Virus record (IMG/VR): IMGVR_UViG_2703718811_000008
Location: 1-7,370 of that record
DNA from: a virus
Lineage: Duplodnaviria; Heunggongvirae; Uroviricota; Caudoviricetes
Length of the DNA: 7,370 bases
Reading direction: 5' to 3' (one strand)
A program made the translations under genes and the position numbers. Below, in pieces: positions 1 through 7,370 of this stretch (position 1 is its first letter; the number at the start of each line of letters is the position of its first letter). The notes below the pieces were generated by a model. The model was not told the origin of the DNA and did not search any database. It saw nothing but the letters and a program-made list of their open reading frames with translations.

Positions 1-104
1 GGACTGCCAAACGGCTGCCAGCCCTCCCTCAGTTTTTGTGTCAGTCGCTCCGCAAGGTCTGACGGAGACGCCGCCCTGACCACGTCATAGTGTTTAAATG
101 CCAT
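1..104 (-). CDS. Small phage protein, 5' part only (gene runs off the left edge); tentatively DUF1737-like, the type often found just upstream of lambdoid lysis genes
   Basis: ATG at 104..102 with GGAGG (RC of 109-113) 4 nt upstream; frame stays open to position 1; translation MAFKHYDVVRAASPSDLAERLTQKLREGWQPFGS...; absent from ORF track because under 60 aa inside the window. Family assignment is from memory of an EGW.P.G-type motif. Confidence 0.45.
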   Translation of the reverse strand, partial: MAFKHYDVVRAASPSDLAERLTQKLREGWQPFGS

Positions 105-283
105 TATTCCTCCCCTTTCCGGGATTTTCCTCAACAGTTGCGGGCCACGGTCCGGCTACACGGAGAATCAAAAGAGGAGAACCGCAGCCCGCAAAACGAA
201 AAAGGCCGCGCAGTTGCGCAGCCTTATAAACCCTGGTTAAAATCCACACGATAAAAATGACAATGCAAGTATCTCATGCTGTT

Positions 284-309
284 GCCCGAACCCACTCGGG
301 CTTTTTTTG
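284..309 (+). terminator. Rho-independent terminator (plus strand)
   Basis: Stem GCCCGA (284-289) / TCGGGC (296-301), loop ACCCAC, followed by T7 (302-308). Confidence 0.6.
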
Positions 310-310
310 C

Positions 311-340
311 ATAAAAAAATCCCCTCCGGAGAGGGGATTT
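311..340 (-). terminator. Rho-independent terminator (minus strand)
   Basis: Perfect 8-bp stem ATCCCCTC (319-326) / GAGGGGAT (331-338), loop CGGA; on the minus strand the hairpin is followed by T7 (RC of A-run 312-318). Confidence 0.6.
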
Positions 341-649
341 GCTTGTGTGAACATTTACATTGCATAACTGCATGGTGCCGGGTGCCTCCCGGTGAATTCA
401 GTATCAGCACCTGAATCCGCGATTATCACATATACCTACTTGCTGATTGCCCCTCCGCACAGGGGGATTCACCATGCGAGATTATTTTTAACAAAACGAC
501 GGGTTATTATCCAGTACCCAACATAATGAAATGTGATGCTTTTAACATTTTTCACAACCCGAGCTTAATGATAATCGCTTTATTAACACCCCAGTTTCAT
601 GGCGAGTTTAAATTTCTGCTTGTACCACTCTAGTTTAATATCAAAAATA

Positions 650-784
650 TCAGTTATCGATAAGAATATAGTAAACAAATAAACACATCCCGAGAAAACC
701 AATAACTATCATAGCTAATGCCAGCATAAATATTTGTTGTATACTTATTTTTACCGATGAAAGGTAACGCAGGAAAATGCTCAT
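650..784 (-). CDS. Candidate small single-TM membrane peptide (44 aa)
   Basis: ATG at 784..782 with GGGGA 7 nt upstream (RC of 785-800 = TTATGGGGACAGTATA); translation MSIFLRYLSSVKISIQQIFMLALAMIVIGFLGMCLFVYYILIDN, stop TGA at 650-652. This is the C-terminal part of track ORF 650..976, whose upstream part overlaps the tRNAs and is rejected. Very AT-rich, so could be a chance ORF. Confidence 0.3.
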   Translation of the reverse strand: MSIFLRYLSSVKISIQQIFMLALAMIVIGFLGMCLFVYYILIDN

Positions 785-807
785 TATACTGTCCCCATAA
801 TCCTCTA

Positions 808-882
<75 letters not shown>

Positions 883-883
883 A

Positions 884-960
884 TGGTGCGCCATACTGGA
901 TTCGAACCAGTGACCGATTGCTTAGAAGGCAATTGCTCTGTCCAACTGAGCTAACAGCGC
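884..960 (-). tRNA. tRNA-Arg (anticodon UCU, reads AGA), CCA encoded
   Basis: RC of 884-960 = GCGCTGTTAGCTCAGTTGGACAGAGCAATTGCCTTCTAAGCAATCGGTCACTGGTTCGAATCCAGTATGGCGCACCA. Canonical cloverleaf: D-arm GCTC/GAGC, anticodon stem ATTGC/GCAAT with loop CTTCTAA, T-arm ACTGG-TTCGAAT-CCAGT. Similar to but distinct from E. coli argU as recalled. Confidence 0.9.
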
Positions 961-964
961 TTCG

Positions 965-1038
965 TGCCCCTGCCATGTTTGAACCGGCGACCTGGCGGTT
1001 ATTAACCGCTCGCTCTGACCATTAGGGCTAAAGGGGCA
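965..1038 (-). tRNA. Degenerate tRNA-like element (possible pseudo-tRNA), no CCA encoded
   Basis: RC of 965-1038 = TGCCCCTTTAGCCCTAATGGTCAGAGCGAGCGGTTAATAACCGCCAGGTCGCCGGTTCAAACATGGCAGGGGCA. Perfect 7-bp acceptor-like stem TGCCCCT/AGGGGCA, T-loop-like GGTTCAAAC, anticodon-like loop TTAATAA (nominal AAU). But the D-stem has a mismatch, there are 3 nt between acceptor and D-stem, and the T-stem has a G-A pair. Sits 4 nt from tRNA-Arg. Confidence 0.35.
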
Positions 1039-1309
1039 ATAAGTTTCTTTAAAAACAGCATGCATATGCCTGCTATATAATCCATACTAACTTTTATTAA
1101 AAACAAATTCAACAAAATCAAGGTTAGCGATACTTCTTTATCTAATAGCAACATTAATTACTATTGTGTGATTTTGATGATACTCCCTATTAAAAAACTC
1201 TTCCATTAGCACAATGAGTGCTCAGCTATCTATTGAAATAAATGAGCACAAGAGGTATACATATCTCCACAGCAGACATTCTATCTAAAAGATCACAAAA
1301 ACAGACATC

Positions 1310-1657
1310 ATGATAAAAAATATTTTTATAATAATTTCAAGCATCCTCTGCATGGGGCTAATTGTGGAACATCCTCAAATCGACAGTGAAATATCGACAA
1401 ATGAAATAATCAATTGCCTTTCCAAGACAATTCAAGAAAGTGGTTATATAATGGATCTCAACGGCACCAAACCACCAATTAATGCAAAAGAATTCGCAAC
1501 ATATAGAATGTCAAAATACACCGGCTCATTCTGGATAGAGTATTCAACAGAAGGAAGACCAACAAGGAATGTTGGCATAATAAATGCAACAAATGATAAT
1601 TATAATACTTTGAATGATGCGTTACAATTTTGTATTAATAACATGACGAAATATTAA
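1310..1657 (+). CDS. Hypothetical small secreted or membrane-anchored protein (115 aa), AT-rich cargo gene
   Basis: ORF-track ORF; N-terminus MIKNIFIIISSILCMGLIV looks like a signal peptide or TM anchor; rest is hydrophilic and Asn/Thr-rich. Very AT-rich compared with the phage backbone. No strong SD before the ATG. No family recognised. Confidence 0.5.
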   Translation: MIKNIFIIISSILCMGLIVEHPQIDSEISTNEIINCLSKTIQESGYIMDLNGTKPPINAKEFATYRMSKYTGSFWIEYSTEGRPTRNVGIINATNDNYNTLNDALQFCINNMTKY

Positions 1658-1853
1658 CATCAACAATTAATATGTGTACATCCCCGTGAGCAAACCGTTC
1701 GTAATACCAGTGAGCAACAACAGCATGCGCTCCAACGTCTGAACGGCTTCGCCCATATGATATGGTTCAGCACATTAAAACGTTTACGCATCACGATTTC
1801 AATATCAGATGCCAGGCGATGTCCACAGAACAGGTAAAGACTTCCGGCTGGCT

Positions 1854-2013
1854 TTAACTACCCGACATAACGAGCTGGGTCAGTATTAACTGGCAGCGTT
1901 CGCGTGAAAGGTAAGTACTCTGCGCCATCTCCCCGACTGTCGCCGGGTCGTTAACACTTAATTCATTAAATAACACTCTGGCGGTTTCAGTCATATACGG
2001 CTGTTTCAGCATG
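1854..2013 (-). CDS. Small helix-turn-helix-like ORF (52 aa), possibly a truncated regulator remnant
   Basis: ATG at 2013..2011 with AGGGAAAAAG upstream; translation MLKQPYMTETARVLFNELSVNDPATVGEMAQSTYLSRERCQLILTQLVMSGS. The segment TVGEMAQSTYLSRERCQLILTQL has the pattern of an HTH recognition unit. The longer track ORF 1854..2195 is rejected because its extension contains a terminator hairpin. Confidence 0.35.
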
Positions 2014-2135
2014 TCTTTTTCCCTATTCCGGTTAACGTGACACACCAATAACTCTTGTCGAAAAAGCCAACAAGCTGAAAGACCGGTATTCACCACCACC
2101 AGCGCGTTTACTGAACTACTGAATGTTACAGACAT

Positions 2136-2165
2136 AAAAAAAGCCAGCCACAGGGGAAGGCTGGC
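2136..2165 (-). terminator. Rho-independent terminator (minus strand) downstream of the CPBP gene
   Basis: Stem GCCAGCC (2143-2149) / GGCTGGC (2159-2165), 9-nt loop; on the minus strand it is followed by T7 (RC of A-run 2136-2142). Confidence 0.55.
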
Positions 2166-2559
2166 AAACTCGTAGGGCAAAATGCTGTTACGCAAACTTC
2201 GTTACAGGGATATCCTGCAATACCTAAAATACACAACATTTAGACAACTACACAGTACCTCACTAAACTTTTAAGATTTTGTTATTAAATACAGTTATTC
2301 ACACTCTTACCTGATACGCAGTAATGCCCGTCTGGCCATGTAGAGTAACAACAGTCCGGGCAATGACAATCCATAGACACAAAAACCGCCCGCAGGTGGA
2401 TTTAGCAGTTTGGTACAGTAACCACTTTTAACATCATATTCTATAATTTACGTACGTAAATGCTTTACTACTCATTTTTAACCATTAATGGAGTGAATAT
2501 TATCCAGTGAGCCGTAAACCCCGTTCTTCAGGGCGTGGAGGATGTCAACAACAACATGT

Positions 2560-3378
2560 TCAATGATTTTTTAAGAATGGATAGGTAAAAAATAACAGGT
2601 GGCACAAATTCAACCCAAAATGAAAAAATGTAGCAACCCATAAGCGTCCACTAAACATCCATGCCATGCCATAAATCACTCCAGATAACATTGCAAACAG
2701 TACAAGTAACAAACCACCAGAATAATGATAAAGACCAAACAAAACTGAAGCGATAAACAATGCTACAAATGGATGTACAATCATAGAAAGACGCTGCTGA
2801 AGATATCCTCTGAAAAATGCTTCTTCAGCAAGAGAGACAAAAAACAAGTTGCTCAATATAAACTTTGGCAACCACTCCGGGAAATGAACCTCTGGTTTTA
2901 TTCCACCCAGTAAAACAGCTAAAACCAAAATAAATGGAACAGATAAAAAGAGCAAGGCCCACATTCCATAAGATACTTCGTACCTGAAATCGCTCTTAAA
3001 CAACCTGGGAAAAGATAACACCAATAAAAATGGCACCATGGCCTTATCAAAATTAAAATACATGGTGTATGGCGTACTAAACGGCCCGGTTATTACAGAA
3101 TTCAAAACCACAGGGTTATGAAAACCAGGCCAAAAGTGATATAGCAGCACAACAGATAATACAACTAAACAACTCTCCGTAACAATTCTACACCATGATT
3201 TCTGTGCCCACTTAACTTTTAACCAATACAATAGCCCAACGATTGTAAAGAGACCAAATGCCGGCCAATCTATAACTCCATTAGCGACACCCAAAACAAC
3301 AGATGCTATTAACAATAACAAAGAAAACAGTTTATATGCATTCAAACTTAGCAAGGATAAAGCCAGAACGCCCCACAT
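2560..3378 (-). CDS. CPBP-family (CAAX protease / Abi-type) intramembrane metalloprotease, 272 aa
   Basis: ATG at 3378..3376 with GGAGG about 6 nt upstream (RC of 3379-3395 = TTTTTGACGGAGGTTTT). Polytopic hydrophobic protein with the three CPBP motifs in order: EExxxR (AEEAFFRGY), FxxxH (FGLYHY), HxxxN (HFGLN). Gene is strongly AT-rich. Confidence 0.85.
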   Translation of the reverse strand: MWGVLALSLLSLNAYKLFSLLLLIASVVLGVANGVIDWPAFGLFTIVGLLYWLKVKWAQKSWCRIVTESCLVVLSVVLLYHFWPGFHNPVVLNSVITGPFSTPYTMYFNFDKAMVPFLLVLSFPRLFKSDFRYEVSYGMWALLFLSVPFILVLAVLLGGIKPEVHFPEWLPKFILSNLFFVSLAEEAFFRGYLQQRLSMIVHPFVALFIASVLFGLYHYSGGLLLVLFAMLSGVIYGMAWMFSGRLWVATFFHFGLNLCHLLFFTYPFLKNH

Positions 3379-3423
3379 AAAACCTCCGTCAAAAACAAAT
3401 CATCCCAAGATAACAATAACCAT

Positions 3424-3452
3424 TTATAATACAACTGTCATTTACAATGCAA
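3424..3452 (-). promoter_or_regulatory. Candidate sigma70 promoter for the CPBP gene (pR'-like late promoter or moron promoter)
   Basis: On the minus strand: -35 TTGCAT (3452..3447), 17-bp spacer, -10 TATAAA (3429..3424); about 45 nt upstream of the CPBP ATG, in the AT-rich Q-CPBP gap. Confidence 0.3.
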
Positions 3453-3495
3453 TGCTTACTACTCGTAAAAAATATAATAATAGTCAGAATCCTTC

Positions 3496-3519
3496 CTAGA
3501 TATTGCATGCAATATCTAG
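3496..3519. promoter_or_regulatory. Perfect 24-bp palindrome overlapping the Q stop codon; candidate protein-binding site
   Basis: CTAGATATTGCA|TGCAATATCTAG is exactly self-complementary; no U-tract on either strand, so not a classical terminator; overlaps the last Q codons and its TAG (3516-3518). Confidence 0.4.
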
Positions 3520-3884
3520 CATGCATCCATTTCCAGTGAAACATTAAGTGCCATTAACATCCCGTCAACAATACCCTCAGCCTTTTGAAGTTTTTTACCG
3601 ATATAACCATCCGAACAACCATGTTTTCTTGCCAAACTCATAAAAGTCATTCCAAATACGTAGTAATCAAGCAGCAATTCATGCAGTTCACTATTGTTCC
3701 GGTTCAGGCGCGCCATACACCCGCATATAATCATCGCGTCATCGTCACAACATTGCGGGCGGGATTTTATCTTTGCTGGAATAAGCCCCTTAAATCCGTT
3801 GGCAATAGACGACCATGTTACATCCTCATGGTTATTAGCTACCCATGCTCCCCAGTGTTCGAGAACCATCTGAATATCACGCAT
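3516..3884 (-). CDS. Late-gene antitermination protein Q (QuuD-like lambdoid Q family)
   Basis: ATG at 3884..3882 with GGAG 7 nt upstream; the track ORF starts 5 codons earlier at a TTG. Translation [34 protein letters not shown]...[16 protein letters not shown]... closely matches my recollection of E. coli DLP12 QuuD (YbcQ), including the Cys-rich zinc motif. Confidence 0.85.
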
Positions 3885-3901
3885 CAACTTTCTCCACAAA
3901 A

Positions 3902-4897
3902 TCAGGCCAGCACGCCAATTGCCAGCGCACGATCGATAAAACGAAATATCAGCTCCAGTTGGGAGCCATACTTTTCTTCAAATGCCACGGTATCCGCATG
4001 CAGCTCGTCGTGATGCTTTCTGCACAAAGGCAACACAAAAAGGTCATGCGCTTTTGTACCCATTCCACCCTGACCGTGGCCTATCAGGTGGTGGGGATCA
4101 TCAGCAGGCTTTCCACAACATGCACACGGCTGTGTCTTAACCCAGCGCGTGTACTTTTCATTAACCCAGCGGTGACGTTTTGGGCGTAACATAAAAGACT
4201 CCGGCGACTCCGGATCCACTTTCAGCGCCAGCACCTTTTTCGCTTTATCCTGGATGATGCTGGTGGCAGGAACCGAAGGAATAAGGTCACTTTCCCGGGT
4301 GACAGACGACACAACAGGCTTCGGTAATCTCAGTGCCTTACGGGCTGCACTTTCCGGTAAGGCATCCGCCAGGTCATTACGAACCAGCCACCAGCACAGT
4401 TCAGGCATTGTCACAACGTGACTATCATCAAAACCGAGATCCCGACGCACGACAGACAACACCCAGCGGGCACAGTTATCCGTTGCCATTGATTCCAGCC
4501 GTTCCGTGAACTGATCGCGCAGCTGGTTATCGCAGTGCCAGCACAGACGGATTGCGCCCGGCGCGTGTCGCATTGTGGTCATGTTCTCGCTGTGCCAGTC
4601 GGAATGAGGCCACTGGCAGCCTTTTTCACGAAGTAACCAGCTTTCAAGACATTCCACGCCACCAGCACGACGGATCACTGCCTCATTGCGGAACACGGCC
4701 CGAACGGCAGGATCATCCGCCAGCGGTTGTGATGCCGCCGGAACAGCACCACTGGCGAAAGATGAATAACGTTCCGGCTCAGGCTCCAGCAGGACACGCC
4801 CCTGCATAAACAGGGGCATCAGCTCTGAACCTGGCCTGAACAATACGATCCCCATACGCGGGGCAATTTCAGGGGTCAGTAGTGCTCTCACGGTCAC
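3902..4897 (-). CDS. DUF968-like prophage protein with C-terminal Cys/His (HNH-like zinc-binding) motif; YdfU-like position directly upstream of Q
   Basis: 331-aa ORF, stop TGA at 3902-3904. C-terminus [43 protein letters not shown] has C-x2-C...HH...PLC..HH...H spacing. Start uncertain: GTG at 4897, GTG at 4891 (better SD GAGG) or internal ATG. Confidence 0.75.
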
Positions 4898-4898
4898 C

Positions 4899-5708
4899 TC
4901 AATGAACGGTATCGAGCAGCTTTAACAGCTCAGGGAATCGGGATTCGAAGAAATGCGGCTGCGTCTCGCGCGGATTTGCGGGACTGGTGATGTTCTTGCC
5001 GAACATGCAGCCTTTCGCTGTCAGCGACCAGAATTTTTTGATGTTGTTAATCGCGGTACGGCTGTATCGTTCGCGCTGCTCGACGATCCCCAGCTTCACC
5101 ATCTGGTGATATGCCTGATTAGCCGTCAGGCGGATACCATACTGCTTCAGCAGTGCACTCAGTGACAGCGTAGGGCGACTTGAGCCATCGGGTGCATCGG
5201 CAGGAGCATCAATTGCATAGCGCGGAGCCAGATTCGGTAAGCCAACAGCCTCCTGGAGTTTCTGACAAGCCCCAAGCACAGATGAGTTAGACAGGTTTAA
5301 TTCCCGACGCATAAAGTCCAGCAGGATCACGCCAGCCTGCATCTTGTCAGCAGCCTGCCCGGATAATTTTTCCGGTGCGCTGGTTATCATATCGAAAGTA
5401 CGGATCACCTTCAGATGGAATGACGGGCTGATCCACATTGCATAGGCATACACCAGTTCTTTGCAGACATACGTCCCCTGGTTATTTCCGCCATTAATGA
5501 CGCTAACTGGTTGATTTTGTTCCAGAGGCGGAATTCCACCCTCGGTGAAAAGTTGTTCAATCAATTCACAGGTTTGCTTATTGGAGAGCCAGTATTTCGG
5601 GCGGTTTTTTTGTTCTCCCCCGGCTGCCCTGTGCAGATCGTTCAGGCTGTAACGCCCATAAGCATCACGACGAACTTCAATACCATCAATGACCATCAGA
5701 TTATTCAT
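4899..5708 (-). CDS. KilA-N domain protein (Roi / antirepressor-like), 269 aa
   Basis: ATG at 5708..5706 with AGGAG 9-10 nt upstream. N-terminus (VIDGIEVRRDAYGRYSLNDLHRA...GTYVCKELVYAYAMWISPSFHLKVI) matches the KilA-N/APSES pattern (GTWVHP..A..FA.WISPEF as recalled). Stop TGA at 4899-4901. Confidence 0.8.
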   Translation of the reverse strand: MNNLMVIDGIEVRRDAYGRYSLNDLHRAAGGEQKNRPKYWLSNKQTCELIEQLFTEGGIPPLEQNQPVSVINGGNNQGTYVCKELVYAYAMWISPSFHLKVIRTFDMITSAPEKLSGQAADKMQAGVILLDFMRRELNLSNSSVLGACQKLQEAVGLPNLAPRYAIDAPADAPDGSSRPTLSLSALLKQYGIRLTANQAYHQMVKLGIVEQRERYSRTAINNIKKFWSLTAKGCMFGKNITSPANPRETQPHFFESRFPELLKLLDTVH

Positions 5709-5727
5709 ACTTCGTTTCTCCTCTTAA

Positions 5728-5955
5728 TCAGGCGGCTGCACCCGCCGTTTTCTCGTACTTACTGATAGTGATCTCGACCTTCCCTCCCGGGATAACCGGT
5801 CCCCACTCCACCAGCATTCTTTTCACCTGACTGTCGTCTTCCCACACACCCGCGTGGGTCAGGGCGTCAAACAGCGCCTTGTTATAGTTGTCCAGATCGC
5901 GGATCCGGTTATCCCAGCATGGTTGCCACCTCCTGATTGGTTGGCGGAAAGCCAC
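5728..5955 (-). pseudogene. rusA: RusA Holliday-junction resolvase, C-terminal part only (5'-truncated)
   Basis: Frame translates to ...DNRIRDLDNYNKALFDALTHAGVWEDDSQVKRMLVEWGPVIPGGKVEITISKYE, matching the RusA C-terminal catalytic half (RRRDLDN...DALTKAGFWLDDAQV...GGRLELTITE as recalled). The frame is closed upstream, and the roughly 60 N-terminal residues expected for RusA are absent. The track's start is a GTG, and RusA-like sequence begins near 5915. Confidence 0.6.
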
Positions 5956-6019
5956 GCTCTTTCTGGTAAGAAATCAGCATATCCAGCACCTGCTGCTGGC
6001 ATTGAGTTAACGTCGTCAT
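5909..6019 (-). other. 36-codon ORF resembling the N-terminal start of a LexA-type DNA-binding domain; probable remnant at a mosaic junction
   Basis: ATG at 6019..6017 overlaps the TAA of the upstream gene (TAATG). Translation MTTLTQCQQQVLDMLISYQKERGFPPTNQEVATMLG aligns without gaps to LexA residues about 4-36 ([33 protein letters not shown], recalled), then hits TAA exactly where RusA similarity begins in the +1 frame. Confidence 0.3.
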
Positions 6020-6507
6020 TACGCCCCCACGTAATTCCCTGACAGATACCACTCATCACCCGATACAGCGCGCTTGCTGCTTTTCCGTAAACACTGCTCA
6101 CGACGCGCCAGAAAATTGTTTCGTTCTGGCTGGGAGTGGCTTTCACGGAATGCCGCCATCCACACGGTTGCAGCACGACGGTATAAGCCCCTGGACTCCA
6201 GTTCTTCAGCCTGGCGGGTCAGGCACAAAATCACCCGTGGATCGTTAGTGCCGACATAGAAATTGCGCACAGGTCTGGTTTCACGAACTGGTTGTGGTTC
6301 CGGCTCCTGCGCTCTCTCAGTCAGGCGCGGGAAATGTCTGCGTGTATCTCCTTCACAACGGTGAGCCACACGCCCACTCTGACGTAACTTGCTTGCTGAC
6401 TGCAGAACGCGCTGCCGTGAGTAACCTGCAAAAGCCTCCGCAATGTCTCCGGAAGTACACCCCGGATGGGCTTCAATGAATTTCTGAACGTCATTCAAAA
6501 GACTCAT
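6019..6507 (-). CDS. PerC-like transcriptional regulator with N-terminal winged-helix-like region (162 aa)
   Basis: ATG at 6507..6505 overlaps the TGA of the upstream replication gene (ATGA) and has GGGGGGG upstream. C-terminal LESRGLYRRAATVWMAAFRESHSQPERNNFLARREQCL matches the recalled PerC/Pch signature (LEARGLWRRAAARW...RRRKHCL). Confidence 0.65.
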   Translation of the reverse strand: MSLLNDVQKFIEAHPGCTSGDIAEAFAGYSRQRVLQSASKLRQSGRVAHRCEGDTRRHFPRLTERAQEPEPQPVRETRPVRNFYVGTNDPRVILCLTRQAEELESRGLYRRAATVWMAAFRESHSQPERNNFLARREQCLRKSSKRAVSGDEWYLSGNYVGA

Positions 6508-7370
6508 AATCCCCCCCTGAATCCTGCCGGGATCTGGCTGTAGTCCACGTTGTCGTAACTGGCTTTGAAGTACGGGTCTTCGCGTTTTTCGGTGTACGTG
6601 CTGACGGACGGCGATAAGCGCAGGGAAAGCTCATCCCATTTTTCCCGCAGCTTCGACGGGCTGAGCACGTTACGGCACCAGAACGGATCGCGACTGACGC
6701 GGCTGTACATCTCGCAGATTTGTTTATGAGTACGACCATCCTGCACACACATCAGGCGAATTTCGTTTGCCCAGGCTGTCCAGTTCGGTTCTTTGGGACG
6801 AACCACCTCGCCGTCACATTCGGCGGCATGCTCGTACAGGGCGATGATTTTTTTCCAGAGCCACTGTGCGCAGGTCAAATCATCCTGCGTCCCCCACTGG
6901 CGCTTTTTAGGACTGAATACAACCGCATCAGGATGGCGAGTTAAAAAATCCTGTTCAGCCGTCTGCGTGTCCGGTTGCGAAGCGTCCGGACGAGAAGTTT
7001 TTTTATCTGACGGATCATGTTTTGATTTTACTGACGGATCCCCACCAGATTCTGACGGGTGAAAACCCGCTTTTTTGCCAGATTTCGACGCATCAAATTT
7101 TGACGGGCCAGATTTTGATGCGTCAGATTTTGACGGGTCAGAATCTGACAGTTGAGAAAATGCCGCTGCCTGAAGCTTCGCAACGTTAAGCTGATAAACA
7201 TTCGACGCATTGCGGTTACCCTGGCGACGCGCCTTACGCGTTAACCAGCCTTCTGCTTCCAGCCGTGCGATAGCCGTTCTGACGGTACTCATCCCCGCGC
7301 CAATCTGGCGGGCAATGGTTTCAATTGATGGCCAGCACACACCTTTGAACCGCCCCGGAAATCCTGGAGA
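6504..7370 (-). CDS. Phage replication initiation protein (O-like; winged-helix N-terminal domain, repeat-encoded linker), 5' end beyond window
   Basis: Frame is open to the right edge (the track's start at 7340 is a GTG, not a true start). The N-terminal CWPSIETIARQIGAGMSTVRTAIARLEAEGWLTRKARRQGNRNASNVYQL fits the wHTH pattern of replication initiators. An internal Ser/Asp/Lys-rich low-complexity linker is encoded by the tandem DNA repeats. Position is upstream of a nin-like region and Q. Confidence 0.7.
   Translation of the reverse strand, partial: SPGFPGRFKGVCWPSIETIARQIGAGMSTVRTAIARLEAEGWLTRKARRQGNRNASNVYQLNVAKLQAAAFSQLSDSDPSKSDASKSGPSKFDASKSGKKAGFHPSESGGDPSVKSKHDPSDKKTSRPDASQPDTQTAEQDFLTRHPDAVVFSPKKRQWGTQDDLTCAQWLWKKIIALYEHAAECDGEVVRPKEPNWTAWANEIRLMCVQDGRTHKQICEMYSRVSRDPFWCRNVLSPSKLREKWDELSLRLSPSVSTYTEKREDPYFKASYDNVDYSQIPAGFRGGL
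7081..7155. repeat. Five direct 15-bp tandem repeats (iteron-like), with three looser copies at 7001-7060
   Basis: GATTTCGACGCATCA / AATTTTGACGGGCCA / GATTTTGATGCGTCA / GATTTTGACGGGTCA / GAATCTGACAGTTGA at exact 15-bp spacing. The core TGACGGGTCA is a TGAC/GTCA inverted repeat. Extra TGACGG copies at 7008, 7032 and 7053 flank an AT-rich patch (6996-7030). Confidence 0.8.

Follow-up and report, generated by a model that had tools for sequence, protein, structure and literature searches.

The stretch of DNA analysed here (hereafter the window; positions 1 to 7,370 of the IMG/VR record IMGVR_UViG_2703718811_000008) is a 7.37-kb part of a lambdoid prophage, the phage map of which runs along the minus strand. 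Our subject is a gene on that strand, at positions 3378–2560 with the stop codon included, for a CPBP (Rce1-like) intramembrane glutamic endopeptidase. Along the minus strand the window contains, in this order, a replication gene, a PerC-like gene, a fragment of RusA, genes for KilA-N and DUF968 proteins, the antiterminator gene Q, the CPBP gene, a non-coding leader, a small open reading frame (ORF), tRNA-Arg and tRNA-Gly. In the source genome nanS-p and the lysis genes come next, past the window, and the whole corresponds to the backbone of Stx1a prophages. Positions 4000–2000 are 100% identical to a prophage found at tRNA-Thr/proA of the bovine Escherichia coli isolates OkiPb01678 and OkiPb01712.

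The CPBP gene is an ATG-initiated ORF for a protein of 272 amino acids (aa), which matches Pfam family PF02517 (Rce1-like) over residues 169–258 at 66.7 bits (cut-off 22.4; E 2.2e-18). This bears out the assignment of a CPBP protease gene to 2560–3378 in the first-pass annotation of the window, as well as its claim of a canonical Shine-Dalgarno sequence: GGAGG is found at 3387–3383, 4 nucleotides (nt) upstream of the ATG. All catalytic motifs are intact, namely E185-E186-x3-R190 (EExxxR), F214-x3-H218 (FxxxH) and H253-x3-N257 (HxxxN). They sit on predicted helices 170–198, 203–217 and 246–263 and are invariant in an alignment of 37 homologues, as are the N-terminal Met-Trp and a PGFHN...NFDKA loop. 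The AlphaFold2 model is confident (mean predicted local distance difference test score, pLDDT, 95.5) and describes an all-helical membrane protein with a polytopic fold like that of the solved members of the CPBP family.

Protein searches retrieved sister alleles at 62–65% identity from Shigella, E. albertii and E. coli, in which AAGGA or AAGGAGG stands ahead of the invariant Met-Trp start. Between CPBP alleles the ratio of non-synonymous to synonymous divergence (dN/dS) is 0.12–0.30 and synonymous sites are nearly saturated, so that purifying selection on the gene is evident from the sequence comparison. Together, the Pfam match, the invariant motifs, the structural model and the low dN/dS indicate that the ORF is a functional gene for a catalytically competent CPBP protease. 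Among the prophage alleles the core of the protein (residues 170–272) is 74–81% identical, as against 38–49% for the first four helices (residues 1–79), a contrast compatible with conserved chemistry and shifting specificity.

Immediately upstream of the CPBP gene lies Q (3516–3884, minus strand), which encodes the short, 122-aa form of the antiterminator and belongs to the Q21 structural family (Pfam PF06530, E 7e-52; PDB 6p18, Q21, E 5e-8); RefSeq labels the product as a 122-aa 'antiterminator Q family protein'. It is 80–85% identical to the Q proteins encoded upstream of every sister CPBP allele. Both genes are on the same strand and are separated by an AT-rich gap of 137 nt (29% GC).

The late promoter PR' was located by homology to the element that directly follows Q in Stx1a prophages. 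In those prophages, which have the same DUF968–Q backbone, the end of Q is followed at once by TTTACG-16-TATCAT, GTGGTTAC, a hairpin, a stretch resembling a small RNA (sRNA) and a terminator of the form GCCAGCC...GGCTGGC-U. In the Stx1 and Stx2a phages of strain Sakai the start of the PR' transcript was mapped directly after Q, and the 3' end at tR' was mapped 258 nt downstream, by differential RNA sequencing (dRNA-seq) and Term-seq (Sy, Lan and Tree 2020, PMC7547250). The same work showed constitutive activity of PR' in lysogens and processing of its short RNA to a 74-nt sRNA, StxS (Sy, Lan and Tree 2020, PMC7547250). Counting at the Stx1a locus from the last base of TATCAT to the last base of the U run gives 264 nt, or 258 nt if transcription begins 6–7 nt past the -10. 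Because this spacing fits the published RNA, TTTACG-16-TATCAT can, on sequence grounds, be equated with the mapped PR'.

The window carries the equivalent element at 2433–2460 (minus strand), composed of the -35 hexamer TTTACG (2460–2455), which is part of the palindrome TTTACGTACGTAAA (2460–2447), a spacer of 16 base pairs (bp) and the -10 hexamer TATGAT (2438–2433). It was also recovered in a promoter consensus scan, with a predicted start near 2426. It lies 100 nt past the CPBP stop codon, and the gap between Q and CPBP contains no second copy. The initial transcribed region (2381–2425, minus strand), recognised in the Stx1a alignment, is conserved and holds GTGGTTAC (2425–2418) together with a -10-like TACTGT (2420–2415), which by analogy with Q21 biology is a candidate sigma-dependent pause element. 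The first hairpin after PR', at -19 kcal/mol a strong one in the Stx1a prophage, has been lost in the window, where it is reduced to a degenerate CCACC (2399–2395) and GGCGG (2390–2386) followed by T5. Further downstream, the last 110 alignment columns (2136–2245, minus strand), corresponding to the StxS-like 3' part of the short PR' RNA, are 91% identical to the Stx1a PR'–tR' region and end in tR', a strong intrinsic terminator with a GC-rich 7-bp stem (2165–2159 and 2149–2143) and a U7 run (2142–2136). The full late-leader unit from PR' to tR' (2136–2460, minus strand) yields ∼291 nt, compared with 258 nt in the Sakai Stx phages; no Rfam match was reported over this stretch.

This alignment places the CPBP gene upstream of PR' and outside the Q-dependent late transcript. 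For Q21, the -35 and -10 hexamers of PR' flank the Q-binding element (Shi et al. 2019, PMC6606751), and Q would therefore be loaded downstream of the CPBP gene. Genes of the late transcript are found downstream of PR' and of the site where Q loads; the CPBP gene is upstream of both, and Q therefore could not act on its transcripts. The possibility that PR' is located inside the Q–CPBP gap, CPBP being the first late gene, was considered and rejected, since the PR' element mapped in Stx1a and Stx2a phages has its aligned counterpart on the downstream side of the gene, and only once per locus.

The same comparison bears on the rho-independent terminator at 2136–2165, which the first-pass annotation had assigned to the CPBP gene. 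The strong hairpin is real; however, it is ∼400 nt past the CPBP stop codon and downstream of PR', and the aligned hexamers, their spacing and the conserved stem and U run identify it, by homology, as tR' of a tR'/StxS region and not as a CPBP terminator. Between 2560 and 2460 the fold analysis found only a weak hairpin without a U run (region z-score +0.8), and the same holds for the sister lineages. The CPBP gene thus lacks a terminator of its own, the first strong one downstream being tR', beyond PR'. Nor did the fold analysis find a hairpin with a U tract in the gap upstream of the gene (3515–3379), and the idea that CPBP is set apart by a terminator on either side, towards Q or towards PR', was rejected for want of any such fold. 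The promoter–gene–terminator unit that had been proposed consequently does not hold together, as the terminator cited for it belongs to the PR'–tR' (StxS-like) unit.

The promoter named in that proposal, TTGCAT-17-TATAAA, fares no better. Its hexamers exist, at 3452–3447 and 3428–3423, but the spacer between them is 18 bp long, the -10 is missing the conserved T at -7, and the two together fall outside the four best sigma-70 position weight matrix (PWM) matches in the gap; they are probably not the promoter of the gene. Two of the three regulatory elements cited in the first-pass annotation are, then, mis-assigned. The best candidate for a CPBP promoter (3413–3441, minus strand) comprises the -35 hexamer ATGACA (3441–3436), a 17-bp spacer and the -10 hexamer TATTGT (3418–3413). 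It has the top PWM score in the gap and was also found by the consensus scan, with 9 of 12 matches and a predicted start near 3406. Its -10 hexamer ends 34 nt before the ATG, compared with 31 nt in the sister lineages, which keep TTGYCA-17-GATAAT at that distance, and MAFFT aligns the two elements with each other. The sister motif is matched or exceeded in score by 0.5–10% of shuffled sequences; at one related locus (L005) the motif is TTGACA-19-TATAAT, for which the figure is 2.6%. In Sakai, GATAAT ends at position 1,177,206 (plus strand) and the ATG of the sister allele ECs1085 is at 1,177,238. From the window sequence alone a CPBP promoter is plausible. Over the whole window there is no excess of promoter-like sites (13, against 12.3 ± 3.5 expected).

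The upstream end of the gap is marked by a perfect 24-bp palindrome, CTAGATATTGCATGCAATATCTAG (3496–3519), which was read from the sequence and overlaps the Q stop codon. The corresponding RNA hairpin (-11.6 kcal/mol; z-score -2.7) is not followed by a U tract. No second copy was present in a 26-kb stretch of the prophage, and the palindrome is absent from the sister lineages. It may serve as a protein-binding site or be the scar of a recombination event; an operator common to the immunity region was rejected, as it would have required another copy in those 26 kb.

The promoter region, the CPBP gene and its 3' flank together form an AT-rich cassette of about 1.05–1.06 kb (2466–3515, minus strand), which appears as a single gap in the alignment with Stx1a prophages. 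The cassette sits exactly between the Q stop codon and the -35 hexamer of PR', the Stx1a homology restarting at the TTTACG element. The GC content of the CPBP gene is 0.373, and that of windows across the cassette is 0.34–0.39, compared with 0.44–0.60 over Q and the DUF968 early genes. The locus therefore displays both the presence/absence polymorphism and the deviant base composition of a moron, and the CPBP gene is a cargo gene of this kind, with transcription that is likely to be separate from that of the lytic late operon. Immediately past the CPBP stop codon, a 50-nt segment (2500–2548, plus strand) corresponds to the leader upstream of stx1A in Stx1a prophages, inverted relative to Q (blastn, 90% identity over 50 nt to positions 3467–3516 of locus L002; E 1e-10). 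It looks like a mosaic boundary remnant common to cargo cassettes; on the CPBP strand it folds into a weak hairpin (-8.1 kcal/mol) without a U run.

A scan of IMG/VR added 40 viral contigs to the comparison. In the window and in all 48 related loci, a Q of the same type (122–124 aa) is encoded ∼120–160 nt upstream of CPBP and exactly one TTTACRNNCGTAAA element is found 75–100 nt downstream of the CPBP stop codon, although the 49 loci are not independent: they fall into three or four deep lineages, with 19 different upstream sequences among them. The deep lineages, 35–38% apart at the protein level, also vary in their lysis cassettes and cargo. One lineage (L010–L012; E. coli GCA_012267765.1, SRR6511465) consists of Stx1-type toxin prophages with the order Q–CPBP–PR'–StxS-like–tR'–stx and an A subunit of 315 aa; there, CPBP and the Shiga toxin genes flank the late promoter. 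In E. coli A39 the same position (L004, 3067–3513) is occupied by an unrelated, opposite-strand gene for a 148-aa hypothetical protein without a Pfam family. Because it is filled both by the CPBP lineages and by this unrelated gene, the stretch from the end of Q to the -35 hexamer of PR' appears, on sequence comparison, to be a recurrent cargo slot, of which no description was found in the literature searched.

The commonest allele is ECs1085 of prophage Sp4 in O157:H7 Sakai, which is annotated as 'phage CAAX amino terminal protease family protein' (WP_000265265 in other enterohaemorrhagic E. coli, EHEC). It was present in 572 of 5426 complete E. coli genomes, mostly EHEC of serogroups O157, O145, O111, O103 and O121, whereas the window allele was present in two. 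Neither allele was found in 50,697 GenBank phage records by tblastn and megablast. ECs1085 occupies the same position, after the 123-aa Q (ECs1084) and before the PR' element with TTTACGTACGTAAA, and resembles the window gene in length (272 aa), motifs, AT-richness and the presence of a candidate sigma-70-like promoter at the same distance from the ATG. The two proteins, on the other hand, are 62% identical overall and 38% identical in the first 79 residues, and the upstream gaps are largely unalignable. Unlike the window, Sp4 carries TrmB-like and AraC-like genes and ileZ-argN-argO after PR'. The window gene is thus a new and rare allele of a prophage cargo gene that has been annotated but not studied.

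The explanation of the whole locus towards which we lean, with confidence somewhat above even, is that an intact CPBP protease is carried on a cargo cassette between Q and PR' and is expressed independently of Q, from a weak promoter of its own supplemented by early read-through. In the lysogen, the gene would be transcribed from the weak sigma-70 promoter ATGACA-17-TATTGT, starting near 3406. Upon induction it would also be reached by transcription of the early rightward operon reading through Q, because no terminator separates Q from CPBP; such read-through is the realistic alternative source of CPBP transcription. Transcripts of both kinds would cross PR' and stop at tR' (2136), unless RNA polymerase were antiterminated, resulting in an mRNA of ∼1.27 kb with the StxS-like RNA in its 3' end.

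Expression independent of the late operon, as the first-pass annotation had proposed, is therefore probably correct, but for a reason other than the one given there. The alternatives had been framed as an own promoter or Q-dependent read-through, a choice that falls away with CPBP located upstream of PR'. The idea of a cargo gene transcribed separately from the late operon is favoured by the absence of the AT-rich insert from Stx1a relatives, by the conservation of a sigma-70-like promoter in the sister lineages and by the detection of ECs1085 in uninduced cultures. In Additional file 2 of Bergholz et al. (2007, PMC2241611), which concerns uninduced Sakai, ECs1085 is listed among the significantly changing O157-specific genes, with log2 values of +0.73 to +0.94 in exponential phase and of -0.24 to -0.90 from the transition onward (false discovery rate p 0.004). 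There it belongs to QT cluster 1, together with the Bor homologue ECs1625, whereas most of the prophage genes in the part of the table covered here are in cluster 2 and rise in stationary phase; ECs1086, located just past PR', has a profile unlike that of ECs1085. Insofar as a sister allele can stand for the window gene, this bor-like profile fits expression in the lysogen decoupled from the lytic genes. The CPBP gene is not among the genes listed in the supplements of the EHEC modulon paper.

Several observations weigh against this reading. The score of ATGACA-17-TATTGT is equalled by 27% of dinucleotide shuffles of the gap, and its sequence is unlike that of the sister-allele promoters. H-NS frequently keeps AT-rich cargo in E. 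coli silent. The array values concern a 62%-identical allele in another prophage and come from a 2007 oligonucleotide array, on which cross-hybridisation or low signal is possible. Three of the 40 CPBP copies on IMG/VR viral contigs (L056, L058 and L059) are frameshifted and split over two or three reading frames, and the gene is therefore dispensable in some prophages. To these may be added a series of blanks in the search for a function. No conserved neighbour among the chromosomal homologues provides a clue to the substrate; no PADLOC-DB v2 family matched at E ≤ 0.01; NCBIfam gave only sub-threshold hits of the myxosortase type, below the cut-offs for myxosortases and MroQ; and the literature searches, which paired CPBP or CAAX with prophage, Q, Stx, defence or ECs1085, turned up no paper about the CPBP gene.

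One alternative is a gene without a functional promoter of its own, which would be the last member of the early operon, co-transcribed with Q after induction and serving lytic growth only, for example in envelope remodelling, lysis timing or the exclusion of competitors during the burst. We regard such a delayed-early gene as a minority possibility, though one to be taken seriously. Apart from the chance-level promoter candidate in the window, it is favoured by the common orientation of Q and CPBP across a gap of just 137 nt without a hairpin-plus-U-tract terminator, and the tight linkage to Q, invariant in the window and in 48 of 48 related loci, is what would be expected of an operon member. 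It does not account for the good sigma-70 match that the sister alleles retain at constant spacing from the ATG, and a cassette so AT-rich and deviant in composition is typical of morons. Also, in the array data (PMC2241611) ECs1085 peaks during exponential growth and declines as most prophage genes in the covered part of the table rise; ECs1084, the Q gene, is not among the significantly changing genes in the tables covered. The weight given here applies to transcription by read-through only, since an own promoter and read-through can coexist.

A self-contained unit with the promoter TTGCAT/TATAAA (3452–3423) and its own terminator (2165–2136), contrasted with Q-dependent read-through, as originally pictured, is very improbable. 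Hexamers, Shine-Dalgarno sequence and terminator all exist at or near the positions given for them, but the 18-bp spacer, the missing T at -7 and the rank of the pair below the top matches speak against the promoter, the terminator is beyond PR' in a region 91% identical to the mapped tR'/StxS region of Stx1a prophages, and Q-dependent read-through would have no access to a gene upstream of PR'. We consider it very improbable that the gene is a silent passenger, i.e. acquired DNA without useful expression (for instance because of silencing by H-NS) and without a role for phage or host. The AT-richness of the cassette, the frameshifted copies, the rarity of the window allele (2/5426 complete genomes) and the lack of a published phenotype would be in keeping with such a fate. 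They are opposed by purifying selection at a dN/dS of 0.12–0.30 in spite of near-saturated synonymous divergence, by the invariance of all catalytic residues and by the filling of the slot in several deep lineages, including a sister allele found in 572/5426 genomes which, in the array data, is detectably regulated.

What the protease might do is a separate matter. It is possible, although we hold it only tentatively and by analogy, that the protein is a lysogenic-conversion factor that cleaves or sequesters a membrane-inserted peptide or protein. It could act in immunity or exclusion, as do Abi/CPBP proteins of Gram-positive bacteria, or in the processing of a host envelope protein; in either case the conserved catalytic core would provide the chemistry and the fast-diverging N-terminal helices would set the specificity. 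Abi proteins are said to give immunity through their protease motifs, a finding attributed to the 2010 work of Kjos et al. in J Bacteriol. The main alternative to an immunity or exclusion protease is a role in lytic growth. More speculatively, and in our view unlikely, Q–CPBP–PR' would be a conserved module of EHEC-type lambdoid prophages, in which a protease made in the lysogen shields the host from a peptide toxin that acts on membranes, or from a superinfecting phage, its N-terminal helices tracking the target. If true, this would be, as far as we could find, the first case of CPBP-based immunity or exclusion in Enterobacteria and on a lambdoid phage.

The defence role suggested in the first-pass annotation received no direct support, PADLOC included, and among the PHROGs only families of unknown function were matched. 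Genes for homologues with ∼50% identity stand alone on the chromosomes of Enterobacter, Hafnia, Dickeya, Salmonella and others, and their neighbourhoods are all different; a dedicated partner is therefore not needed. The same evidence disposed of the idea that a conserved partner gene might point to the substrate, the chromosomal homologues being monocistronic in unrelated surroundings. No bacteriocin-like neighbour was seen at the prophage loci or next to the chromosomal homologues of Enterobacter, Hafnia, Dickeya and Salmonella. The missing bacteriocin linkage lowers the case for membership of the Abi immunity group; orphan immunity is still compatible with it.

With Rce1 (PDB 4CAD), SpdC/LyrA (PDB 6U0O) and the Abi immunity proteins, the window protein has in common the polytopic fold and the EExxxR, FxxxH and HxxxN motifs, at 13–20% identity to the solved CPBP members. 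Many Abi genes are, like the window gene, stand-alone on a mobile element. Unlike Rce1 and Abi, the window gene has neither a prenyl-CAAX context nor an adjacent bacteriocin gene, and unlike SpdC its product keeps all catalytic residues. A second group of counterparts are the lysogen-expressed lambda morons bor and lom, which are likewise composition-deviant inserts between genes that are adjacent in related phages; in the growth-phase array data from an uninduced lysogen, a Bor homologue co-clusters with the sister allele. However, bor and lom are inside the late region, whereas the window gene is between Q and PR', and without a terminator of its own the latter falls short of the full promoter–gene–terminator definition of a moron. 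A further comparison is with stx1AB in Stx1a prophages, which have the same backbone (DUF968–Q ... nanS-p–lysis) and a conserved PR' and StxS-like region with tR'. There, stx1 follows PR' and tR' and depends on Q besides possessing a promoter of its own, while CPBP is upstream of PR' and Q-independent.

The slot between Q and PR' is distinct from the well-known slot after tR' that is occupied by stx. Genes placed in it escape control by Q, yet they are transcriptionally contiguous with Q and with the PR'/StxS unit. The sister allele is present in about one in ten complete E. coli genomes, and some Stx1-type toxin prophages carry it immediately before PR' and stx. Were the protease produced in lysogens, it would be a candidate lysogenic-conversion or immunity factor of EHEC. 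Should CPBP transcription cross PR', it could affect the occupancy of the late promoter or the supply of StxS-like RNA, and if the CPBP mRNA ends at tR', its 3' untranslated region would be a second, PR'-independent source of StxS-like regulatory RNA. For annotation, the locus illustrates an easy mistake: the terminator after such cargo is that of the late-leader unit and not of the cargo gene.

A few further features of the window were noted. Relative to the near-identical prophage of OkiPb01678, the window is without an N6-adenine methyltransferase gene and a stretch running from a LexA-like gene into RusA (window 5728–6025); a 75-aa fragment of RusA remains at 5955–5728. Near the other end, tRNA-Arg(UCU) is at 960–884 and tRNA-Gly(UCC) at 882–808, both on the minus strand. 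A third tRNA-like stretch (1037–965, minus strand) scores 28.3 bits, just below the Rfam threshold of 29 bits, and may be a decayed remnant of a tRNA cluster of the ileZ-argN-argO type found in related prophages. Rfam also matched the sRNA STnc100 at 308–507 (minus strand; 136 bits) and, convergent with it, the prophage anti-sRNA AgvB at 249–308 (plus strand), the latter at 56.6 bits against a threshold of 56 bits and with AsxR scoring 46.8. Between tR' and the tRNAs, an opposite-strand ORF at 1310–1657 (plus strand; ∼37% GC) had no match in Pfam, PHROG or PADLOC; it encodes a hydrophobic N-terminus and may be another cargo gene.

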